Part shown: in pieces, positions 6,578 to 32,000 of the stretch
Numbering within the stretch: position 1 is the stretch's first letter
Layout of the letters: each line of letters begins with the position of its first letter
DNA from: Clostridia bacterium
Lineage (GTDB): Bacteria; Bacillota; Clostridia; Oscillospirales; Acutalibacteraceae
Reading direction: 5' to 3'
Assembly: GCA_017623615.1 (NCBI GenBank)
Contig: JAGAOT010000014.1
Coordinates: forward strand, 78,958-110,957
DNA: 32,000 nucleotides
Notes under the pieces: generated by a model
Database searches by the model: none
The model's input: only the letters and a program-made list of their open reading frames with translations
Told to the model about the DNA's origin: nothing
Program-made: the position numbers and the translations under genes

Positions 6578-8863
6578 TTATTTGCCTGTCCTAAGGTCTA
6601 CACGGCGGATTTTGCCGCTGATTGTCTTGGGCAAATCGTCTCTGAATTCAACGATTCTGGGGTATTTATAGGGAGCGGTATGTGTTTTAACATATTCCTG
6701 GATTTCCTTTTTGAGTTCGTCTGTGCCGACGGTGCCTTTGGTTAAAACAACAGAAGCTTTAACAATCTGACCTCTTACTTCGTCAGGAACGGGAGTAACT
6801 GCACATTCAAGAACATAGGGAAGTTCCATAATAACACTTTCAATTTCGAAGGGTCCTATACGGTAGCCTGATGACTTGATAACGTCATCGATACGGCCAA
6901 CATACCAAAGATAACCGTCTTCGTCCATTGTTGCGGTATCGCCTGTATGATAATAGCCGTCGTGCCATACATCGTTTGTTTTTTCTTCATCAAGATAGTA
7001 GCCTATAAACAAGCCGCAGGGAACGTTATCCTTTGTACGGATACAGATTTCACCGGTGTCACCTGTTTTGCATTCATTGCCGTCGGGGTCGAGAACAACA
7101 ACATCATAAAGAGGGCTGGGTTTACCCATTGAGCCTATTTTGGGAGTTGAACCAACGAAATTCGCAATAGAAAGAGTTGTTTCGGTCTGACCGAAGCCTT
7201 CCATAATGGTAAGACCCGTTGCCTTCTTGAACTGATTGAAAACCTCGGGATTAAGAGCTTCACCTGCTGTTGTTGCATATTCGATTGAAGAAAGGTCATA
7301 CTTTGACAAATCTTCTTTGATGAAGAATCTGTACATCGTGGGAGGTGCGCAGAAGGTTGTTATATTATACTTCTTGAAAAGAGGAAGAATATCGTCTGAA
7401 TGGAATCTGTCGAAGTCATATGTGAATACACCTGCTTCGCAAAGCCACTGACCATAGAGCTTGCCCCAGAGTGCTTTACCCCAGCCTGTATCTGAAATTG
7501 TGAAATGAAGGCCGTCGGGATTAACATTATGCCAATGCCTTGCAGTGGGATAATGACCGAGAGCATATTTGTATGAATGGGTTGCAATGCGAGGATAGCC
7601 CGTTGTGCCCGATGTGAAAAGCATAAGCATGGGGTCGTTGCCGCAAGGTGAGTTTTCGTTGCGGAAGAAATGGGTGCTGAAGCGTTCCATTTCAACGTTG
7701 AAATCATTCCAACCGTCTTTCTTGCCGCCAACAAGAACTTTTATCATTTCGGGGAACTCTGCTGCAGCCTTTTCCGCTTCGGCAGAAACATCACCGTCTG
7801 CGGTACAAACGATTGCTTTTACGCCGGCAGCTTTATATCTGTATGTAAAATCGTGTTCAACAAGCTGATTTGTTGCGGGAATTGCGATTGCACCAATCTT
7901 ATGAAGAGCAAGCATACAGAACCAGAACTGGTAGTGACGCTTAAGAACAAGCATAACCGTATCGCCTTTTTTGATTCCGAGAGATTCAAAATAGTTGGCG
8001 GTTTTTGCCGAATATTTCTTCATATCGCTGAATGTGAATCTGCGTTCGGATTTATCGTTTCCGACCCACATCATAGCGAGCTTATCGGGTGTTTTTGCCG
8101 CAATTTCATCAACACAGTCAAATGCGAAATTGAATTTGTCTTCATTTTTAAATGAAATACCGCTGAATACACCGTTTTCATCATAGTATGATTCAATGAA
8201 ATTATCGGCAACGGTTGTTTTGGAACTCTTTTCTGAAGATGAGGTTTTAGCTGAAACATCGGGAGTTTCGGGATATTCCTCGCTCACCTGACCATTCTGA
8301 GGATTAAGAACAACAGCGTGGAATTCACAACCGCCTTCGCTTACGGCTATCATACCGTGAGGTATAAGGCTGTTATAGAAAATTGAATCGCCCTCATTAA
8401 GGATATCAACATGGTTGCCAACCTGAACCTTAAGCGAACCCTTAACGATAACATCAAACTCCTGACCGTTATGGGAGCTGAGTTTTATGGGTGCGTTCTG
8501 TTCCTCTTCAAGATAAGGGAATTTAACAAGGAAAGGCTCCGCAAGCTTTTCCTTGAATTTGGGTGCAAGGTTATTATAGATATAGCCTTTTTTCTTGATG
8601 ATTTTGGCACCTTCGCCTTTTCTTGTTATTGCAAAAGATGTAAGAGTTGAGCTTCTGCCTTCGAGAATATCAACAACCTCAACGCCGCAAGCCTTTGCAC
8701 ATTTATAAATGAATGTAAAGCTGAAATCGGTTTCGCCCTGTTCAAGAATTTTATAATCCTCAACCGATACGCCCGTAAGCTTTGCAAGCTCTTCCTGCGA
8801 ATAACCTGTTACTTCACGCAAATCTTTGATTCTGCCGGCAACCTCTTTCAAATTGTAGTCCAT
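6578..8863 (-). CDS. Fusion protein: XRE-type HTH + cupin domain + AMP-forming acyl-CoA synthetase/ligase (ACSM-like)
   Basis: HTH text LKEVAGRIKDLREVTGYSQEELAKLTGVSVEDYKILEQG. Cupin text DVIVKGSLKVQVGNHVDILNEGDSIFYNSLIPHGM. Adenylation motifs MLFTSGTTGYPR, YHTGD and the C-terminal SGKIRR. Start moved to ATG 8863 (MDYNLKE) because SD AAAGGAG (8872-8878) precedes it; the track start 8884 has no SD. Confidence 0.85.
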   Translation of the reverse strand: MDYNLKEVAGRIKDLREVTGYSQEELAKLTGVSVEDYKILEQGETDFSFTFIYKCAKACGVEVVDILEGRSSTLTSFAITRKGEGAKIIKKKGYIYNNLAPKFKEKLAEPFLVKFPYLEEEQNAPIKLSSHNGQEFDVIVKGSLKVQVGNHVDILNEGDSIFYNSLIPHGMIAVSEGGCEFHAVVLNPQNGQVSEEYPETPDVSAKTSSSEKSSKTTVADNFIESYYDENGVFSGISFKNEDKFNFAFDCVDEIAAKTPDKLAMMWVGNDKSERRFTFSDMKKYSAKTANYFESLGIKKGDTVMLVLKRHYQFWFCMLALHKIGAIAIPATNQLVEHDFTYRYKAAGVKAIVCTADGDVSAEAEKAAAEFPEMIKVLVGGKKDGWNDFNVEMERFSTHFFRNENSPCGNDPMLMLFTSGTTGYPRIATHSYKYALGHYPTARHWHNVNPDGLHFTISDTGWGKALWGKLYGQWLCEAGVFTYDFDRFHSDDILPLFKKYNITTFCAPPTMYRFFIKEDLSKYDLSSIEYATTAGEALNPEVFNQFKKATGLTIMEGFGQTETTLSIANFVGSTPKIGSMGKPSPLYDVVVLDPDGNECKTGDTGEICIRTKDNVPCGLFIGYYLDEEKTNDVWHDGYYHTGDTATMDEDGYLWYVGRIDDVIKSSGYRIGPFEIESVIMELPYVLECAVTPVPDEVRGQIVKASVVLTKGTVGTDELKKEIQEYVKTHTAPYKYPRIVEFRDDLPKTISGKIRRVDLRTGK

Positions 8864-10816: not shown

Positions 10817-10843
10817 AGGGTCGATGTGGGCATCGGCCCCTAC
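10817..10843 (-). repeat. GC-rich palindromic repeat (REP-like) between the response-regulator and kinase genes
   Basis: Plus strand AGGGTCGATGTGGGCATCGGCCCCTAC, one mismatch to 6502-6528. Its CTA (10840-10842) is the TAG stop of the response regulator. No T-run follows it on the minus strand. Confidence 0.7.
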
Positions 10844-16700: not shown

Positions 16701-18248
16701 ATGTTTGTTGTTACAAGCAAGCAAATGTATGCGGCGGAGTGCAACGCCGTTAAAAGAGGAATATCCTTTCCGCAGCTTATGGAAAATGCGGGTCAGGCAT
16801 GCGCCAAAATCATAAAAAAGCATTTTTGCATCAGCAAGGAAAATCCGCGCAATGTGCTGATTATCTGCGGCAAGGGCAAAAACGGCGGTGACGGCTTTGT
16901 TATCGCCCGCAAAATGTGGGAATACGGCTGTGACGTTACCGTTATGCTTGCCTGCGGGGAGCCGAAGGCAAGGGACGCCGTTGACATGTTTTCGCTTGTT
17001 GAATCGGCGGGAATTAACATAGTAAGATATAACAATAACCTCACCGTTTTAAAGCCGCATCTTGAAAAAGCGGAGATAATTGTTGAGGCGGTTTTCGGCA
17101 CGGGCTTTACCGGCTCGCTTGACCATTCTTTGAGCGTTCTTGCGCAGGCGGTCAATGCCGCAAAGGCACCCGTTGTTGCGATTGATGTGCCTGCGGGTGC
17201 GGACTGCGACAGCGCAACCGTGCAGGGCACGGTTTTTAAAGCGGATATGACAATCGCAATTTCGGCATACAAGCCTATTCATATCATGAAGCCATGCAGC
17301 AAATACTGCGGAAAGCTTGTTGTTGCCGACATAGGCATAACAACCGATGATATCAAAAATATCGACAGCGTAACCTGCTTCACGCTCGGCACGCAGGAAG
17401 TCAAATCCATGCTTCCCAAGAGAAAGCCCGTTTCAAACAAGGGCACCTACGGGCACGCCCTTTGCGTTTGCGGAAGCATGAGGATGACGGGCGCGGCTTA
17501 TCTCGCCGTTGGCGGTGCTCTGCGCTGCGGCGCGGGGCTTGTTACCGCGGCATTCCCGCAGAGTGCATATCCTGCAATCGCGCCGAAGCTTACAGAGCCG
17601 CTTCTGCTGCCTCTTGAATCAAATTTTGAGGGCACCTTTGCCTTTTCCGCAATGGCGGGGGTTATCGAGGCATCAAGCCGCGCAACTGCGGTTTTGGCAG
17701 GCTGCGGACTCGGATTTAACAAAGACACAACCCTGCTGGTTACAAACCTTATAAAAGAAATAAAAAAACCGATGATTATTGATGCAGACGGCATAAATGC
17801 TTTGAGCACAAATATAGATATATTGAAAGAAGCCGAAGCACCGATAATCATAACTCCGCATCCGGGCGAAATGAGCCGACTTTGCGGCAAGAGCATTCCC
17901 GAAATTCTTGCAAACCCAATCTCGATTGCATATGATTTTGCAAAGAAATACGGCATAACGGTTGTCCTGAAAGGCGCAAACACCGTTGTATGCGACGGCA
18001 AAACAGACGGAATTTATGTTAACGCAACGGGCAATTCGGGGCTTGCGCGCGGCGGAAGCGGCGATTTGCTTGCAGGAATGGCGGTTTCATTCCTCGCGCA
18101 GGGCATGAAGCCGTTTGATGCGGCGATGTGTGCCGTTTATCTGCACGGCTTGTGTGCGGATGAGGTTGCAAAAAACACCTCTATGCGCGGAATGCTTCCG
18201 AGCGATGTTTTGAATTATCTGCCCGAGCTTTTTTCAAAATTTGAATAG
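16701..18248 (+). CDS. nnr: Bifunctional NAD(P)H-hydrate repair enzyme (epimerase + ADP-dependent dehydratase)
   Basis: YjeF_N motif CGKGKNGGDG. The C-terminal carbohydrate-kinase-like domain has GGSGDLLAG. ATG 16701 preferred over TTG 16698 (SD GGGGTGA 16690-16696). Ends in TAG 18246-18248. Confidence 0.9.
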   Translation: MFVVTSKQMYAAECNAVKRGISFPQLMENAGQACAKIIKKHFCISKENPRNVLIICGKGKNGGDGFVIARKMWEYGCDVTVMLACGEPKARDAVDMFSLVESAGINIVRYNNNLTVLKPHLEKAEIIVEAVFGTGFTGSLDHSLSVLAQAVNAAKAPVVAIDVPAGADCDSATVQGTVFKADMTIAISAYKPIHIMKPCSKYCGKLVVADIGITTDDIKNIDSVTCFTLGTQEVKSMLPKRKPVSNKGTYGHALCVCGSMRMTGAAYLAVGGALRCGAGLVTAAFPQSAYPAIAPKLTEPLLLPLESNFEGTFAFSAMAGVIEASSRATAVLAGCGLGFNKDTTLLVTNLIKEIKKPMIIDADGINALSTNIDILKEAEAPIIITPHPGEMSRLCGKSIPEILANPISIAYDFAKKYGITVVLKGANTVVCDGKTDGIYVNATGNSGLARGGSGDLLAGMAVSFLAQGMKPFDAAMCAVYLHGLCADEVAKNTSMRGMLPSDVLNYLPELFSKFE

Positions 18249-23524: not shown

Positions 23525-23600
<76 letters not shown>

Positions 23601-23704: not shown

Positions 23705-24637
23705 ATGAGCAGAAAAATCACTATGAACAGGACTGAAAACAAGACCTTTGAACAGGTCTTTTCAATGTTCATCACTTCAAGAACGGCAAACGGCGTTTCC
23801 GATGCAACAATCAGGAATTATCATCAGCATTTGCACAGTATTTCAAAGTATCTTGACATTAAGATGCCCTTTGATAAGCTCTCCAAAAGCACCATTGATG
23901 ATATGATTGTCGAAATGCGAAACTCCGACCTTGCCTATAATTCCATTGCAACCTATGTCAGGGTTGTAAAAACTTTTCTTACTTGGTGTAATGAGGAAGG
24001 TTTGTCTGATGTTAAAATCAAAGGTCTGAAGGAAAAGGAAACGGTAAAAGAAACTTACACCGATGAGGAGCTTGAAATCCTGTTGGCAAAACCGAAAAAG
24101 GACTGTAATTTTTGCGAATACCGTAATTGGGTTATTGTCAATTTTCTCCTCAACAGCGGATGCCGAGCGGCAACAATCAGAAACATTCAGAACAGAGATG
24201 TTGACCTTCAGCGAAAACAGGTTATCTTCCGACATAATAAGAACGGCAAAATTCAGGTTATCCCCCTTTGTTCTCTGATGTGTAATATCCTGATTGATTA
24301 CATGAAAATAAGGCAGGGCGAAGCAGAAGATTATCTTTTCTGCGACCAATACGGCAAAATGCTGACCGAGAACGGTCTCAGACTTGCCATTGAACGATAC
24401 AACAAGAAAAGAGGCGTAAGCAAAACAAGCACGCATCTGTTCCGCCACACCTTTGCCCGAAAGTATTTAGTTGACTGCGGCGGCGATGCCTTTATGCTTC
24501 AAAGGCTCTTGGGTCATAGCACTCTGAACATGACAAAGCATTACTGCACAATCTTCGATGCGGATATTTCCAAGAACTATGACAGAGTTTCTCCACTTGC
24601 TCAGATGCACCAAGAGAAAAAGAAAATAATCAAATGA
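23705..24637 (+). CDS. Tyrosine site-specific recombinase (phage-type integrase)
   Basis: 310 aa. SAM-like N-domain plus a catalytic domain carrying the R...HxxR...Y signature context (GCRAATIRN..., THLFRHTFARKY, LLGHSTLNMTKHY). Confidence 0.9.
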   Translation: MSRKITMNRTENKTFEQVFSMFITSRTANGVSDATIRNYHQHLHSISKYLDIKMPFDKLSKSTIDDMIVEMRNSDLAYNSIATYVRVVKTFLTWCNEEGLSDVKIKGLKEKETVKETYTDEELEILLAKPKKDCNFCEYRNWVIVNFLLNSGCRAATIRNIQNRDVDLQRKQVIFRHNKNGKIQVIPLCSLMCNILIDYMKIRQGEAEDYLFCDQYGKMLTENGLRLAIERYNKKRGVSKTSTHLFRHTFARKYLVDCGGDAFMLQRLLGHSTLNMTKHYCTIFDADISKNYDRVSPLAQMHQEKKKIIK

Positions 24638-24747: not shown

Positions 24748-25869
24748 TTAATCGTTATACATACCTCTTATCTTATCTAAATGAGCCTTATACCCTTCAA
24801 CCACATGGTCGGGTGCAAGAACCTTTACTTTTTTACCGAATCCTGCAAGCCAACCATAAAAAGGTTCACTTATATCAACCGTTGTCATAACTGTAAAATA
24901 ATCTTTGTCGAGCTTAGAATATGACACGCCCTTTTTACCGAATCGCTCAACAACGGCATCCAAAAGGAAGTTGGGGAAACAGAGTGTGACCACTTCTGTT
25001 TTGCCTTTAAACATATTAAATGTTCTTTTTATGAGCGATTCAATATTGGTCTTTTCGTATTCTTCTTCGCCCTCTCTCGGCTCAGATGTAAAACAAACGT
25101 CTTTCATCCTGTCAACTCTATAAATTCTTATCTCTTTGTATTTATCGTCAAATCCTAAAAGATAATAATTGCCGTCATTGATAACGAGCTTATAAGGACT
25201 GACAATATATTTTTCTCCTTTTCTCTGTGCAACCTGATTGTGAAGGTCGTTTATTGAGTTTTTCATATAATGAAAACTTATCTTTTCAGGTTCGTGCGGT
25301 TCGCCGTCATAACTGACACTCATTGCTTCGTAAATAGTTTGAATGTTGTATATCAGAGCGGTGTTTGTTGTTTTGGGTCTGTCGATAACAAACGCATCCG
25401 CCTTTATTTTCTTTGCCTGATGAACACTGAGAAATTCACAGGCGGCATCAATCAATCGCTGAGCTTCAGATTCAGAAACAAATTTTGCCGAGTTAATGCA
25501 CTCAGTCATAAGGCGAATATCCTGAAGGCTGAAGTGTCGCTCAGGGATATAAAATCCTTTGGGATGTTTGTAAAGAATCAATTTTTCTTCATCGTATTTA
25601 TCGTTCGCAATTACTTTTACGGCTTCATCAATATCAGAATCGTTTTCAAGCATCCAATTAACTTCATTTATTTCTTCAATATCTTTGTATATGGAGCGGC
25701 GTTCCGCATAAATCTGACAGTTCTCCTGAAGAAAAGCCTCAATCATTTTGCCTGAAGCATAATTATCTTCATCGGTTTCTCTGAGAAGATACTGAAGAAC
25801 GATATAAGGCTTCATGCGTTGCTTCGGCTTTTTGCCGTGATGCTTGTCAGGATGCTTTTTTTTCGCCAT
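24748..25869 (-). CDS. WYL-domain transcriptional regulator (N-terminal wHTH + WYL + C-terminal extension)
   Basis: 373 aa. N-terminal HTH-like YIVLQYLLRETDEDNYASGKMIEAFL. WYL core YYLLGFDDKYKEIRIYRVDRMKDV. SD GAAGGTGA upstream. Confidence 0.75.
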   Translation of the reverse strand: MAKKKHPDKHHGKKPKQRMKPYIVLQYLLRETDEDNYASGKMIEAFLQENCQIYAERRSIYKDIEEINEVNWMLENDSDIDEAVKVIANDKYDEEKLILYKHPKGFYIPERHFSLQDIRLMTECINSAKFVSESEAQRLIDAACEFLSVHQAKKIKADAFVIDRPKTTNTALIYNIQTIYEAMSVSYDGEPHEPEKISFHYMKNSINDLHNQVAQRKGEKYIVSPYKLVINDGNYYLLGFDDKYKEIRIYRVDRMKDVCFTSEPREGEEEYEKTNIESLIKRTFNMFKGKTEVVTLCFPNFLLDAVVERFGKKGVSYSKLDKDYFTVMTTVDISEPFYGWLAGFGKKVKVLAPDHVVEGYKAHLDKIRGMYND

Positions 25870-27305: not shown

Positions 27306-27893
27306 TTATGTCTCCAAAAGAGAAAGATATTTATAAACCGTGTTTCTACTCAGACCGCAGACCCTTGCGAACTCAGAAAGATTCAGATTGCCCGATTTGA
27401 ACGCAGGATAATGTCTGTAAAACACTTGCGGAATCGCATCCGTTGTTGTTTGCGGTCGCCCGATTTTCGCTCCCTTTGCTTTGGCATTTGCCATTCCTGA
27501 ACGCACTCTTTCACGGATGATTCTGAGTTCGAGTTCCGCAAACACTCCCGACATCTGAATGAACGCATTTGTCATGGGGTCAATCTGACCGTTTGAACAA
27601 TCAACCGTAATACTCCCCACAATTACGAGACGGAGCTTATTATCCTTTACGGTTTCGATAATTTCACAAAGTTGCTTTGTGCTTCGGGCAAGTCTTGAAA
27701 CTTCAAGAGTATAAATTGTGTCTCCTTCCTGAGCCTGTTCCAAGAGGGATGAAAGCTCCTGCTTCACGGCACTGTCGCCGTGTTCGTATTCAAGGAATAT
27801 TTCCGTTGCTCCTGCGGCTTTCAGTTCTTTAACCTGACGAAAAATATCTTGTTTGCTCTCATTAGTCGAGCAACGTGCATATCCGTAGTTCAT
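27306..27893 (-). CDS. Small serine recombinase (resolvase/invertase type) with C-terminal HTH
   Basis: 195 aa. N-terminal catalytic motif YGYARCSTNESKQD and the E-helix ELELRIIRERVRSG. C-terminal HTH LSEFARVCGLSRNTVYKYL. Confidence 0.9.
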   Translation of the reverse strand: MNYGYARCSTNESKQDIFRQVKELKAAGATEIFLEYEHGDSAVKQELSSLLEQAQEGDTIYTLEVSRLARSTKQLCEIIETVKDNKLRLVIVGSITVDCSNGQIDPMTNAFIQMSGVFAELELRIIRERVRSGMANAKAKGAKIGRPQTTTDAIPQVFYRHYPAFKSGNLNLSEFARVCGLSRNTVYKYLSLLET

Positions 27894-27907: not shown

Positions 27908-28174
27908 TCAATCAACAAAGGTGTTGTATGTGAATTTTGCTCCAAGCTTAAAGCCTGCAATAAAACTGTCTGCGTTGCTTACACAAAGGAACTCACCCGA
28001 CTGTTTCAGATATGTGTCAAACAGTTCGCTTTCCGCATCGGTCAGGCTTGCGGCAAGCACACTCTCTGTCTGAGACAGAGCTTTTAATCTCTTTCTGAGT
28101 TCGGGTTTCAGCTCGGTTGTGATTTCCTGCGGCTCGATGTTTCCGTAATAAAATTCTTCAATAAAGTTCGGCAT
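27908..28174 (-). CDS. Hypothetical small protein (MGE-associated, EEFYYGNI N-terminus)
   Basis: 88 aa. SD GGAGAAAGGA upstream. Sits 14 nt upstream of the recombinase gene in the same operon. Confidence 0.6.
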   Translation of the reverse strand: MPNFIEEFYYGNIEPQEITTELKPELRKRLKALSQTESVLAASLTDAESELFDTYLKQSGEFLCVSNADSFIAGFKLGAKFTYNTFVD

Positions 28175-28223: not shown

Positions 28224-28499
28224 TCAGCAGATTGAGAAGCGGCGGCTGCTGACCTGCTTTGTGAACTCCTTATACATTTCACCGTGCATCTTCTTGAATG
28301 CGGTGGTATCGAATCTCTGTGAGAGCACCGAAGTCCAACGGATGATATAAGCTCCTGCTTCAAGTTCCTCGGTGTCCTGTTCAAGCATCTCTGCTTTGAG
28401 TGCCTCTCTGATTGCCTCTGCTTCTGCCTTAGCATCCTCGATGATTGTTTCCCACTCTGCGAGAGCCTCGATTTTCTTGATGATTTCGTTGTTTGACAT
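28224..28499 (-). CDS. Hypothetical coiled-coil-rich small protein, first gene of the recombinase operon
   Basis: Start set at ATG 28499 (MSNNEIIKKIE), 8 nt after AAAGGAGA. The track start 28541 lies inside the promoter/operator region. 91 aa. Confidence 0.6.
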   Translation of the reverse strand: MSNNEIIKKIEALAEWETIIEDAKAEAEAIREALKAEMLEQDTEELEAGAYIIRWTSVLSQRFDTTAFKKMHGEMYKEFTKQVSSRRFSIC

Positions 28500-28554
28500 G
28501 GTTGTTATCTCCTTTGTTTTTATTTGTTTGGTGTGTATCAACTGTCTATATTAT

Positions 28555-29177: not shown

Positions 29178-29224
29178 GAAAAAATACGGCAAACCGTGAG
29201 ATTGTCTCTCTTGGTTTGCCGTAT
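29178..29224 (-). terminator. Intrinsic terminator ending the TAG-containing operon (hairpin also usable on the plus strand)
   Basis: 12-bp stem ATACGGCAAACC (29184-95) / GGTTTGCCGTAT (29213-24), followed by ATTTTTTC on the minus strand. Confidence 0.75.
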
Positions 29225-29226
29225 TG

Positions 29227-29358
29227 TTATTTGAAATCTTTAAAGATTTTGTCAAATGCCATATCAAGTGCGGTTTTCATGCTCTTTTGCATAAAGGCAA
29301 GAATTTCCGCCTCGATTATGTTCTTCTTTTTCCGCTTTTTATCTTTTGGCTTCGCCAC
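29227..29358 (-). CDS. Small basic protein, 43 aa (operon gene E; no internal TAG)
   Basis: GTG 29358, 6 nt after AGGTGAA. Translation (M)AKPKDKKRKKKNIIEAEILAFMQKSMKTALDMAFDKIFKDFK, TAA stop. Not on the ORF track because it is under 60 aa. Confidence 0.5.
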   Translation of the reverse strand: MAKPKDKKRKKKNIIEAEILAFMQKSMKTALDMAFDKIFKDFK

Positions 29359-29360
29359 TG

Positions 29361-29546
29361 TTATTTCACCTCGCTTGTAAAGATGAATTGAACAGTTTCG
29401 GGTTCTTCCGAATCATGTAATGAGTTGAAGAAATTATCTCTCTGTTCTGTATAGTTTTCTATTGCAGATTTGCCGTTCATTTGATAATAAAACAAATCGG
29501 GAACTTTGCCCTATGCCCTGTTAAACTCCAATAAATCTTTATTCAT
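29361..29546 (-). CDS. Hypothetical 61-aa protein requiring TAG read-through (operon gene D)
   Basis: ATG 29546, 7 nt after GGAAGGAGAA. Translation MNKDLLEFNRA-[TAG 29511-29513]-GKVPDLFYYQMNGKSAIENYTEQRDNFFNSLHDSEEPETVQFIFTSEVK, TAA stop. Its start overlaps the gene C stop (ATGA). Confidence 0.6.
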
Positions 29547-29980
29547 ATATTTTCTCCTTCCATAATATCATCAAGGGATATATTCAATGCAACCCTGTTG
29601 ACTGTATAGCTTCTCCAATTTTCCTCTTTTGGAATCTGAGTGTTCAGCGGCGGCTAATACAGGCGGATGAAATATCCTTCTCTTTCTCCGATTTCTTCTT
29701 CGATTTCTGCTCTTGTTTTGCTCTTGGCGGTATAAAGAACATTGAATCTGACGTTATATCTCCGCCTATGGGCTTCCGCAAGAACTTTATATTTATTCTC
29801 TTTTGGATTTCCCATTGAAGCCCAATGTTCCGCCATTCGGTATAGAATATCTTTGCTTTTACCGATATAAACGATTTTATTGTTGACGGTTATTGAATAA
29901 ACCCCCGAACACTAAAACTTTTTACTCCATTCTTGCTCAATGTATTTGTTGTATATGTTCTGTATGTGTAAATTACTCAT
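29543..29980 (-). CDS. GIY-YIG nuclease-domain protein, 145 aa, requiring read-through of two TAG codons (operon gene C)
   Basis: ATG 29980, 7 nt after AAGGAAGGAG. Translation MSNLHIQNIYNKYIEQEWSKKF-[TAG 29912-14]-CSGVYSITVNNKIVYIGKSKDILYRMAEHW...EREGYFIRLY-[TAG 29654-56]-PPLNTQIPKEENWRSYTVNRVALNISLDDIMEGENI, TGA stop 29543-45. The track shows only the 60-aa fragment 29654..29836. Confidence 0.7.
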
Positions 29981-29995
29981 ATTCATTCTCCTTCC

Positions 29996-30478
29996 TTAAA
30001 ATACAAAATTACCGTGTTCGTCTGTTGAACACTCACTTACTTTTTGATTCTTTATATTGTTATAATTTATATTATTCGAGCTTATAATTTTCTCTATATT
30101 ATTATGCGTATTTTCAATAACCCCTGCTGAGGTATATTCAGAATTTGAAGGGGTATATTCATTGTCGGGGGAAGGGGTATTTTCAATATCCCTCTCCGCA
30201 CTTTTATAAATCGCATCATAATCAACGATGATTTCACCTTGCTGACCGTTTTCGCTTGGCTTGTGGATTATCCAACCTTTTTCAATCAGCTTTTTTCTTG
30301 CACTCTTATATGTTGTTTCTGACATTCCGCATCTGCTCATGACCGTCGCCTCAGGAACGGCAAAACTGCCGTTGTCTGCGTTTCCTGTCAGAAATAATAT
30401 CAGTTTCAGCTAAGCTCCTTCTTTGCCTGTCAGACCGTTAAATATTATTGATTCAAGGTGATTCGTTCTCATTGCCAT
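29996..30478 (-). CDS. Winged-helix (replication-initiator/DnaD-like N-terminus) protein, ~160 aa, requiring TAG read-through (operon gene B)
   Basis: ATG 30478 or 30472. Translation MAMRTNHLESIIFNGLTGKEGA-[TAG 30410-12]-LKLILFLTGNADNGSFAVPEATVMSRCGMSETTYKSARKKLIEKGWI..., TAA stop. The track ORF 29996..30340 starts in the middle of the HTH. Confidence 0.65.
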
Positions 30479-30509
30479 TCCCCACTTTTTATCCCTGTTT
30501 TTTTCTCCA

Positions 30510-30689
30510 TTAGCCCTCAGTATCGGTGCCTGAATAAAAACGCCCATAGCCGCAAATCCTCCACTATTCGCAAATAAATCTGATATACTGACTTGTATTC
30601 ATGTGATATTTTCTTGCCTACTCTTGGATTGCTTCCTTTTCTTTTTCAGTCAGGCGAAGGTCAATTTTTTTATCTTTTTTTGGACTCAT
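30510..30689 (-). CDS. Ribbon-helix-helix / MobC-like small protein, 59 aa, requiring read-through of one or two TAG codons (operon gene A)
   Basis: ATG 30689, 7 nt after AAGGAGAG. Translation MSPKKDKKIDLRLTEKEKEAIQE-[TAG 30618-20]-ARKYHMNTSQYIRFICE-[TAG 30564-66]-WRICGYGRFYSGTDTEG, TAA stop 30510-12. Confidence 0.65.
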
Positions 30690-30758
30690 TTTATCTCTCC
30701 TTTTACTTGTAAATTTTCTTTGAAATGAATTATCAGACGTTGTCCTACCTTCTAATAT

Positions 30759-30787
30759 ATTATACAAAAAATTTTTCTTAAAATCAA
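30759..30787 (-). promoter_or_regulatory. Promoter of the TAG-containing operon
   Basis: Minus strand TTGATT (30782-87), 17-nt spacer, TATAAT (30759-64), about 70 nt upstream of ATG 30689. Confidence 0.7.
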
Positions 30788-30803: not shown

Positions 30804-30840
30804 CAAACAAAAACGCCACTGAACAGTTGAGTTCAGCGGC
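30804..30840 (-). terminator. Intrinsic terminator after the upstream paralog gene
   Basis: Minus strand CCGCTGAAC / GTTCAGTGG (plus 30816-24 and 30831-39, one wobble), followed by CGTTTTTGTTTG. Confidence 0.7.
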
Positions 30841-30874
30841 GGACTTGCTTTATTAAAATACATATGGATTCCTC

Positions 30875-31342
30875 TTATGAAACTTTTTTAAGTTGGAGTT
30901 CTTCGCTCTTTGTCTCTTGGATTTCTTCCGAATCCTTTTTAATAGTCGGCATACCGTTATTTACGATTTCAGGATATTTCTCCAAAAACCAATTTTTTAT
31001 TTCGGGATAACGGTGTGCTTTCGAGTGGCATTCACTGATAAAAAGTTTATCATCAAGTTCTTGGAGAACAGCATCTCTTGTTTCAATGGGCTCAAATCTT
31101 CTGATAAATTCTCTCATATAATCATAAGTTAATCCCTCATAGTGTTCCTGATTGCCGTTGATTTTTATATCTTCACGAACAACAACCTTATAGCTCGGGA
31201 AACTCTTTATATATCCTGCATGTATTTTAAACTCCTTATTTTTGGGGTTCTTTGCTTTTTCCGCAAACCATTTGTAAAGGACAATTTGATTGTTAGCGTG
31301 GTCGAATCTTGCAGGGTTAATTCTTGTTTTAGTCTTTGCCAT
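30875..31342 (-). CDS. Hypothetical protein, paralog 1 (YxGLxYDYM ... WFLxxYPEI motifs)
   Basis: 155 aa. SD AGGAAAGGAAGG upstream, TAA stop. Shares two motifs with the upstream gene. Confidence 0.7.
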   Translation of the reverse strand: MAKTKTRINPARFDHANNQIVLYKWFAEKAKNPKNKEFKIHAGYIKSFPSYKVVVREDIKINGNQEHYEGLTYDYMREFIRRFEPIETRDAVLQELDDKLFISECHSKAHRYPEIKNWFLEKYPEIVNNGMPTIKKDSEEIQETKSEELQLKKVS

Positions 31343-31365: not shown

Positions 31366-31821
31366 TTAAGCCACAACTCTGAGATTGGCTTTCTTTTCTT
31401 CACGAACCTTTGCTCTCTTGGCTTTAATTTCCTTAAGTGTCTTGTCGGTATCATTGTTGAATTCTTCGATTTCAGGATATGTCGCCAAGAACCACATTCT
31501 TACATCACCATAAGAGTATTCTTTGATAGCAACATCTCTTTCACCTTTTTCATTAAGACCCCTGAGCTTATAGAACATTTTAAGATTTTCTTCCTTATTG
31601 TCATGAGCTTCGATATATCGCTTCATGTAATCGTAATCAAGACCTTTGTAAGTATCTTTATTAGTTGAGTTTGCTTTTACAACGATTTCAAAATCAGGGC
31701 ATAATGTGCGGAGTTTTACAAGTTCATTGAACTTTTCACTGCCGAACTTTCCTGCTTCCTTAGCTTCTGTCTTTGTCATTTCGATTGTGTTTTTTTCAAA
31801 ATTAATTGTCATAGTTATCAT
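31366..31821 (-). CDS. Hypothetical protein, paralog 2
   Basis: 151 aa. ATG 31812 (MTINFEKNT) may be the real start, given the spacing from AAAGGAA. YKGLDYDYMKRYI and WFLATYPEIEEF match paralog 1. TAA stop. Confidence 0.7.
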   Translation of the reverse strand: MITMTINFEKNTIEMTKTEAKEAGKFGSEKFNELVKLRTLCPDFEIVVKANSTNKDTYKGLDYDYMKRYIEAHDNKEENLKMFYKLRGLNEKGERDVAIKEYSYGDVRMWFLATYPEIEEFNNDTDKTLKEIKAKRAKVREEKKANLRVVA

Positions 31822-32000
31822 TTCCTTTACTAAATTATTTTGCGGTAAGTCGCTACCTTATTTCAGCACTTCAGGTTTCACCGTTTGCCTCTTGGTTTCG
31901 TTCACTCCTTTCAGGCGTTTTGTTTTGGTGTGTTCCCCTCTGCTGTGTCTACAGTATATCACGCAACCACAATTTATCAGTCGTTATAAATGCAAAAAAC

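Follow-up and report, generated by a model that had tools for sequence, protein, structure and literature searches.

Apparent reading of TAG as a sense codon in a single replication-type transcription unit of a family of small integrated elements in Oscillospirales

The question raised by the locus described here is whether genes interrupted by TAG codons, and by no other lesion, can be functional in a bacterium that itself uses TAG as a stop. The locus lies in a 32,000-nt stretch of a Clostridia bacterium genome (GenBank assembly GCA_017623615.1, contig JAGAOT010000014.1, forward-strand positions 78,958–110,957), hereafter the window, in which positions are counted from the first letter. An element of ~8.7 kb is integrated there at a tRNA-Thr gene of a standard-code Clostridia (Oscillospirales) genome, and on its minus strand it carries a compact unit of five genes, A to E, the first four of which are broken under the standard code (translation table 11). 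Of the 14 host backbone genes in the window, ten end in TAA, two in TGA and two in TAG, so the host uses TAG as a stop and follows the standard code.

The initial annotation had read six in-frame TAGs in four consecutive genes and had proposed amber recoding. Translation of the minus strand reproduced all six coordinates exactly, along with the frame ends TAA, TAA, TGA and TAA for read-through genes A, B, C and D, and neither an in-frame TAA or TGA nor a frameshift was encountered in these genes. The promoter proposed upstream of them was located as well. The layout of the unit, in its order of transcription, is as follows.

30814–30841, minus strand: intrinsic terminator between orf155 and the unit (11-bp stem with 7 GC pairs, T-run)
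30759–30787, minus strand: sigma-70-type promoter, TTGATT-17-TATAAT (10/12 matches)
30510–30689, minus strand: gene A, NikA-like ribbon-helix-helix (RHH) protein, 59 aa (Pfam NikA-like, E=5e-9), ATG at 30689, in-frame TAG at 30618–30620 and 30564–30566, TAA end after 59 codons
29996–30547, minus strand: gene B, Rep-like winged-helix protein (phage replication-initiator/DnaD-like), 183 aa (Pfam HTH_36; phrog_270, 186 and 678), single in-frame TAG at 30410–30412, TAA end
29543–29986, minus strand: gene C, GIY-YIG nuclease, 145–147 aa (Pfam GIY-YIG; phrog_1111 endonuclease), in-frame TAG at 29912–29914 and 29654–29656, TGA end
29361–29546, minus strand: gene D, 61 aa, in-frame TAG at 29511–29513, TAA end (translation)
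29227–29358, minus strand: gene E, 43 aa, GTG start, Lys-rich N-terminus, no TAG in the window copy (translation)
29186–29222, minus strand: hairpin ACGGCAAACC ... GGTTTGCCGT followed by a T-run, directly after gene E (read from the sequence)

With a promoter of their own and a terminator just upstream (30841–30814), genes A–E form a separate transcription unit. The hairpin at 29186–29222, which a terminator scan did not list on account of its 17-nt loop, is likely the terminator of this unit. The 59-aa frame of gene A agreed with the initial annotation; the start it had given for gene B (ATG at 30478, about 160 aa) did not hold, the actual ATG lying at 30547, preceded at 8 nt by a GGAGGA Shine-Dalgarno sequence and followed by an N-terminus (MGVFIQAPIL) that is kept in relatives. 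Genes A and B overlap by 38 nt, the tail of A covering the start of B. The folds proposed in the initial annotation were recovered by Pfam as a NikA-like RHH domain in A, an HTH_36 winged helix in B and a complete GIY-YIG domain in C, the last of which covers both TAGs.

The uniformity of the lesions was already difficult to attribute to chance within the window. From 29227 to 30689, TAG occurs only nine times in any frame, six of them in frame, while 34 TAA and 38 TGA occur in any frame and none in frame. The probability that six of six lesions are TAG was 2e-6 by composition and 6e-4 by single-nucleotide mutational paths. One of the six, the second TAG of gene A (30564–30566), was suspected of being a true stop on the grounds that it stands 17 nt before the gene B ATG, beside the Shine-Dalgarno sequence, and is kept in the relative L004 (related loci are given here by L numbers). 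This was rejected, as relatives have CAG (L005–L007, L082–L086) or ATG (L008, L009) at the site.

We then compared the unit with its homologs. A search with the gene C protein returned over 100 homologs; many extend over the full length and have Q at the two places where gene C has TAG, and in several cases the underlying DNA reads TAG although the database entry gives Q, which implies that automated gene callers had already picked a TAG-as-Gln code for those contigs. A survey of one genome per species with the GIY-YIG query recovered 74 loci, and within their GIY-YIG matches 104 TAG, one TAA and one TGA were in frame, the TAGs being spread over 29 different alignment columns. Across the whole GIY-YIG family (78 copies, 10,300 codons) there were 120 in-frame TAG, two TAA and one TGA, and 65 of the 78 copies had one to four TAGs; for genes A–D family-wide, 151 TAG stood against three other stops. 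Homologs that end at the TAG positions or carry mixed lesions were not seen, and the read-through proteins aligned with their homologs across every TAG junction.

The residue opposite TAG pointed to glutamine. In the GIY-YIG family, Q was 4.2-fold enriched opposite TAG, the highest of all residues, and at 118 TAG sites the nearest TAG-free relative had Q 47 times (CAG at 40), E 29, D 12 and K 6 times. The otherwise invariant Q of the LNTQIP motif is replaced by TAG in two copies (L016, L062). At the six sites of the window, relatives that are 72–96% identical carry TAG or CAG and occasionally other sense codons: both gene A sites are CAG in some relatives, the gene B site is CAG in L004 and L012, and the gene D site is CAG or CAA in relatives that have TAG at other Q positions. 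Gene E is kept in 19 loci, and its copy in L074 has one in-frame TAG at a Q position. Downstream of the first TAG, the ratio of nonsynonymous to synonymous substitution rates (dN/dS) was 0.11–0.26 at dS 0.4–1.3 for genes B and C, and 0.11–0.23 for gene C, indicating that the region is under purifying selection, i.e. translated. The base following TAG was A in 51, C in 55, T in 31 and G in 14 cases, a distribution without a striking read-through signal. To our knowledge, Gln is the meaning of TAG in all known reassignments of this codon in bacterial viruses. Taken together, the alignments, the interchange of TAG with CAG and the purifying selection bear out recoding rather than decay: TAG is very probably a sense codon in genes A–D, and it is probably read as Gln.

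Two explanations of the interrupted frames lose nearly all of their weight at this point. That table 11 breaks all four genes is what pseudogenes or an assembly artefact would produce, but the 120 TAGs stand against three other stops and no frameshift in 78 independent assemblies from many studies, their positions vary and alternate with CAG, dN/dS downstream of them is 0.1–0.25, and the window by itself gives P ≤6e-4 for six TAGs of six, which leaves this explanation with a negligible chance. UAG serves as a pyrrolysine codon in some Firmicutes, and decoding as pyrrolysine would also keep the frames open. Against it stand the prevalence of Q, E and D over K in the nearest relatives at the 118 sites and the replaced invariant Gln, the absence of pyl genes and of tRNA(CUA) from the window and the loci, and the termination of host genes at TAG, and we consider it barely conceivable. 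Given the homolog alignments, the TAG/CAG interchange and the dN/dS values, decay, assembly error and pyrrolysine are excluded for practical purposes.

The public protein collection was found to contain Q-at-TAG versions of these genes (P0001–P0058; contigs L082 and L084) beside 111-aa fragments of them made with table 11 (P0059–P0063). The annotation of the element family is thus inconsistent between pipelines.

A separate observation concerns the interior of gene B, where three GAAWATACC(Y)C repeats with a spacing of 21–24 bp lie on the minus strand at 30129–30184, with a degenerate fourth near 30108. Three were found against 0.18 expected, an estimate that is optimistic as the pattern was chosen after seeing the sequence. 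The repeats encode a repeated (D/E)NTPS peptide that is present in relatives too, and they resemble the iterons within a lambda-O-type initiator gene, i.e. an initiator with an internal origin.

We next determined how far the recoding extends within the element by searching every element gene against all loci with tblastn under code 15. In-frame TAGs per codons examined were as follows for the families of the unit.

Family A: 12/376
Family B: 9/2,638
Family C: 120/10,300
Family D: 10/803 (0 TAA, 0 TGA)
Family E: 1/653

The remaining families with counts (integrase, WYL, resolvase, orf105, HTH_26, orf155 and orf151) had no internal TAG in about 41,000 codons combined. The corresponding window features, together with the integration site, the cargo and the family counts, are listed below.

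23525–23600, plus strand: host tRNA-Thr(GGT), the integration site (ARAGORN; Rfam tRNA, 67 bits)
23705–24637, plus strand: tyrosine integrase, standard code, no in-frame TAG, TGA end (Pfam Phage_integrase, E=3e-25); family with 0 internal TAG in 10,677 codons, two counted TAGs being terminal stops
24748–25869, minus strand: WYL/WCX-domain regulator, standard code (Pfam WYL, WCX; PADLOC WYL); family with 0 TAG in 8,960 codons
25874–27267, both strands: variable cargo, standard code, namely orf103 (minus), orf169 (plus) and a SHOCT-domain membrane protein (plus; Pfam SHOCT)
27306–27893, minus strand: small serine recombinase (resolvase), standard code (Pfam Resolvase, E=3e-29); family with 0 TAG in 4,930 codons
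27908–28541, minus strand: DUF6809 protein (27908–28174) and orf105 (28224–28541; phrog_6244, RecE C-terminal-like), standard code; orf105 family with 0 TAG in 3,522 codons
28686–28904, plus strand: Cro/CI-type helix-turn-helix regulator (HTH_26), divergent from orf105, standard code (Pfam HTH_26, E=1e-10); family with 0 TAG in 1,944 codons
30875–31821, minus strand: orf155 (30875–31342) and orf151 (31366–31821), a paralogous pair conserved in the family, standard code; families with 0 TAG in 4,686 and 6,270 codons, respectively

When TAG was compared with CAG plus CAA between the recoded and the standard-code gene sets, the difference was highly significant (Fisher p=9e-89). Recoding is restricted to one transcription unit, comprising the RHH, Rep-like and GIY-YIG genes and gene D. 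The claim that no gene of the island terminates in TAG also stood, with no such element gene in the window while host genes at 10840–10842 and 18246–18248 do so. Across the element family TAG is rare as a terminal stop (7/242), and its use did not differ significantly between unrecoded and recoded families (6/152 versus 1/90, p=0.26).

If UAG is read as Gln, something has to decode it, and the element itself offered no candidate. No suppressor tRNA, release factor or aminoacyl-tRNA synthetase was found in it, ARAGORN detecting no suppressor tRNA and a permissive Rfam scan, in which the theta ribozyme was also considered, returning only the host tRNA-Thr and no ribozyme. A tRNA with a CUA anticodon was equally absent from the 77 related loci, from related recoded phages, which are described below, and from among the tRNAs of roughly 1 Mb of flanking host sequence, and in six relatives the tRNAs given by a gathering-threshold Rfam scan were all ordinary ones, placed at or beside the integration sites. 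A suppressor derived from the host tRNA-Gln was sought with a query of the CUA anticodon arm plus T-loop and not found, with no match in IMG/VR and, in metagenomes, two 3′-tRNA fragments on contigs of 58% GC, irrelevant to a window of ~35–50% GC. Of the TAG-recoded phages studied by Borges et al. (bioRxiv 10.1101/2021.08.26.457843), only about 40% had a detectable suppressor tRNA, and as roughly 60% of the published recoded phages thus lack a detectable suppressor, the absence of a tRNA here does not refute recoding.

These searches bear on an explanation in which the host suppresses UAG, through a chromosomal tRNA, another mobile element or leaky reading by a near-cognate tRNA-Gln, with the TAGs attenuating Rep and the nuclease and no helper involved. 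As no suppressor was detectable in the element or in the recoded phages, something external must act; there are cultured isolates among the carriers, and TAG is rare as a terminator in the element family (7/242 terminal stops). An efficient constitutive suppressor would nevertheless be costly to a host in which two of 14 backbone genes end in TAG, and leaky read-through, multiplied over the two to four TAGs of many genes, would give negligible product. The host flanks and the Gln-type anticodon-arm search, which gave nothing relevant, speak against it too, and we consider host suppression unlikely.

Recoded phages of the same kind of host provide another possible source. Gut phages, among them small prophages of Oscillospiraceae, are already known to recode TAG to Gln. 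The TAG-recoded Topaz prophages are 22±3 kb long, reside in Oscillospiraceae, and are bounded by an integrase, which is unrecoded, and a host tRNA-Thr; the sensing of co-infecting phages has also been put forward as a possible function of their recoding (Borges et al., bioRxiv 10.1101/2021.08.26.457843). The element resembles them in its host group, its tRNA-Thr site, the alignment of TAG with Gln, the integrase in standard code within a standard-code host and the mixture of codes among related lineages, and it shares with them homologous integrase, Rep-like and GIY-YIG genes. It differs in size (8.7 kb, family 5–13 kb, versus 22±3 kb), in having no terminase, portal, capsid, tail or lysis genes, in that recoding stays within a single unit of five genes, whereas in the phages it covers nearly all genes, and in that its recoded genes are of replication type whereas those emphasised in the phages are structural and lysis genes.

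A GIY-YIG homolog in IMG/VR led to a true phage of 26.8 kb (L080), the integrase of which is 53% identical to that of the window. Its genes are ordered as integrase, HNH endonuclease, GIY-YIG (without TAG), terS, terL, portal, scaffold, major head and tail fibre. Its relatives of 24–27 kb include many TAG-recoded and some standard-code members, and their terL genes contain 89 TAGs in 6,062 codons, opposite Q 78 times and E 42 times. In one of them (L091), TAGs occur in every gene except the integrase, and a clear gene B homolog (7548–8114) lies between HNH and terS. Among the 74 genome loci, L064 is the sole full phage of this type. Elements and phages have in common the integrase, gene B, the GIY-YIG gene and sometimes an HNH gene.

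Three further observations were made on these phages. Two relatives of L080 (L093, L095) have in-frame TGA rather than TAG, eight of ten TGAs aligning with Trp, and from these alignments the small-phage lineage appears to use three codes, namely the standard code, TAG as Gln and TGA as Trp. The phage GIY-YIG or gene B homolog is placed between the HNH endonuclease and terS/terL (L080, 2870–3746; L091, 6524–8516), a position often tied to cos cleavage and packaging, so that a part in packaging, besides replication, is conceivable for the module. L096 and L104 together (IMGVR_UViG_3300021399_000089, 25,566 bp) represent a complete TAG-recoded phage, the genome of which is closed by a 127-nt terminal overlap.

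The shared genes invite the explanation that the element arose by deletion from a Topaz-like recoded prophage or is a relic of one, perhaps defective, and inherited its TAGs from a code-15 phage ancestor without any switch. Gene B, the GIY-YIG gene and the integrase do have homologs in Topaz-like phages, and among the genome loci L064 is a complete phage of that type. Yet 17 delimited copies have intact attachment (att) repeats at six tRNA species, a conserved backbone that the phages do not have (WYL, resolvase, HTH_26, orf105, orf151/155) is retained while cargo turns over between copies, no remnants of structural genes are present, and the recoded genes are under purifying selection and free of other lesions. 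They would, moreover, need suppression anyway in order to function. We regard a relic as improbable.

We slightly favour the reading that the element is satellite-like, with a replication module that is translated only where UAG is decoded as Gln through a helper's change of code. Full translation of unit A–E would require a cell in which UAG stands for Gln, a state that would be set up in trans, most plausibly by a TAG-recoded Topaz-like phage active in the same cell. Replication of the element would then be licensed by the genetic-code change of its helper, making it a code-gated, satellite-like hitchhiker in which module A–E may replicate the element and the helper may mobilise it. Provision of the suppression by a recoded phage is in itself possible, somewhat short of an even chance. 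As neither partner has a recognisable suppressor tRNA, the code would be switched in these Firmicutes by means other than a phage tRNA; this could be inhibition of release factor 1 (RF1), letting tRNA-Gln read UAG, or alternatively an inducible suppressor encoded by the host. More tentatively still, this would be the first non-viral mobile element shown to use a reassigned codon, and the codon would serve it as a sensor of a helper, here of the Topaz lineage, with a code switch free of phage tRNA.

Several points weigh against a helper-gated satellite. Gating does not extend to every member of the family, since 13 of its 78 GIY-YIG copies lack TAG. Elements and phages have no structural or packaging genes in common, nor any cos/pac-like or other non-coding DNA, and searches of all element proteins against Pfam, PHROGs and NCBIfam gave no primase-helicase, terS or capsid-remodelling gene. 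No tRNA was found by ARAGORN or a permissive Rfam scan in the recoded phages, including the complete L096+L104, and the notion that the helper supplies a tRNA is not supported as such. The family was gathered with a GIY-YIG protein query, so the core status of that gene is partly by construction. For helper dependence, packaging and excision the hints are no more than indirect, namely the modules shared with phages, the presence of three element copies in IMG/VR and an assembled contig (L086; Logan contig ERR11637160_8590, 8,137 bp), which comprises a whole element with identical 30-bp ends corresponding to the att core and resembling a tRNA 3′ end. This contig is ambiguous between an excised circle and a de Bruijn-graph effect at the att repeats, and two other contigs of ~8 kb (L082, L084) showed no terminal overlap.

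The same arrangement could instead serve as an anti-phage trap, in which the nuclease unit could not be translated before infection by a TAG-recoded phage switches the code, whereupon the GIY-YIG enzyme would be made and attack phage or host DNA as in abortive infection. The recoded unit does include a nuclease, the element encodes a WYL regulator of the defence-associated kind (PADLOC), relatives carry restriction-modification and Mrr cargo, and recoded phages of these hosts exist, for which Borges et al. raised the sensing of co-infecting phages. On the other hand, the Rep plus GIY-YIG module occurs in the phages themselves beside terS, which argues for a role in replication or packaging, the PADLOC match is only a weak one to a homing endonuclease, and the Rep-like gene and small structural-looking genes are recoded as well as the nuclease. 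We give the trap little credence.

In comparison with phage satellites, as defined for the PICI/SaPI-like, P4-like and PLE families in SatelliteFinder (PMC10085698), the element is likewise an att-flanked island of 5–13 kb with an integrase, regulators, a replication module and no structural genes, and its family has variable cargo including defence genes and modules related to phages of the same hosts. Unlike PICI, P4-like elements and PLE, it has none of the marker genes (pri-rep primase-helicase, terS, cpm/ppi, psu/delta/sid), and a reassigned codon in a satellite was not found in the literature searched, the coverage of which was incomplete. Within the same limits of coverage, which make this no proof, the literature yielded no recoded integrative element of non-viral nature, satellite-like or other, and no case of recoding limited to the replication module of an element without virion genes and suppressor.

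Code-15 crAss-like and Lak phages are said, in work of Yutin (2021), Ivanova (2014) and Peters et al. (2022), to encode their own suppressor tRNA(CUA). As in the element, TAG is reassigned to Gln in the mobile genome of a standard-code host and the two codes are arranged in blocks, whereas the element has no suppressor tRNA, release factor or aminoacyl-tRNA synthetase, is not a virus, and resides in Firmicutes rather than Bacteroidota. In classical phage genetics, the products of laboratory amber mutants are made only in amber-suppressing hosts. The arrangement of the element differs in being natural, conserved across a family and under selection.

Descriptions of stop-codon recoding have hitherto concerned phage genomes, where its proposed role is to time late genes or to separate lysogeny from lysis. 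Here it occurs in small islands free of virion genes, in one replication-type unit, and it is widespread, with 73 of 74 loci from one-genome-per-species representatives being of this kind. Since table 11 systematically breaks genes A–D, the elements are mis-annotated as pseudogene clusters. With them it can be tested whether the genetic code acts in trans as a regulatory signal from one mobile element to another. They also sharpen the question of how UAG is read as Gln in Firmicutes when neither phage nor element carries a suppressor tRNA, and make UAG decoding experimentally approachable in cultured carrier strains, which include Oscillibacter valericigenes An860, Pseudoflavonifractor phocaeensis An901 and Hominicoprocola fusiformis CLA-AA-H188.

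The att core of the window element corresponds to the 3′ 46 nt of the tRNA (23555–23600) and is repeated at the distal ends of the syntenic elements of 8.3 and 9.2 kb in L006 and L007, respectively. By alignment with these, the window copy is expected to end ~300 bp past position 32000, so that the window should hold almost the whole element. The element has no virion genes and no tRNA other than that of the host, and its DNA had no match among INPHARED phages or PLSDB plasmids. Of the features expected of an integrative mobilizable element, a NikA-like RHH protein of accessory type was seen, and no relaxase ORF was found. The orf103/orf169/SHOCT cargo is missing from most relatives, which have other cargo at the same position.

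The paralogs orf155 and orf151 are 26% identical to each other and share conserved YxGLxYxYM and CHS...RYPxIKxWFLxxYPE motifs; across the family they are always in standard code and lie directly upstream of the recoded unit. They matched no Pfam, PHROG, NCBIfam or PADLOC family, and an AlphaFold2 model (pLDDT 71) had no structural neighbour in the PDB (best E=0.2). As a code-switch factor shared with the phages they were ruled out by the lack of homologs in recoded phages.

The 17 relatives that could be delimited by att repeats are 5.0–13.1 kb long and are integrated at tRNA-Thr, Val, Pro, Lys, Ala and Ser genes. Terminase, portal, capsid, tail and lysis genes were absent from all of them as from the window element, and among the 74 genome loci structural proteins matched only the phage locus. 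Common to the delimited relatives are a tyrosine integrase, in classes of ~310–330 and ~390–415 aa, and the Rep-like/GIY-YIG module; many also have WYL, resolvase, HTH_26, orf105 and orf151/155-like genes. The cargo varies and includes restriction-modification in L077, an Mrr nuclease in L004 and surface proteins. The hosts are almost all Oscillospirales of the gut or rumen, and three element copies were found in IMG/VR.

Several metagenome-assembled genomes harbour two to four copies of the family (L005/L010; L015/L018; L034/L037/L042/L058; L019/L045; L020/L066), some of which bear TAGs and others not. The copy with the Mrr-type restriction nuclease cargo (L004; 7058–7201 and 16249–17247) is inserted not at a tRNA gene but in the 3′ end of a gene for a GGGtGRT-family protein. 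At the distal att of L007, ARAGORN called a 96-nt ‘tRNA-Lys(ttt)’ (7636–7731), the first 46 nt of which are the tRNA-Thr 3′ repeat, and the call is probably an artefact of that repeat. Two att-core repeats were present on the distal side in both L047 (6234–6279, 7571–7619) and L051 (5938–5984, 6711–6757), which suggests a tandem insertion or the remnant of a second element at the same tRNA.

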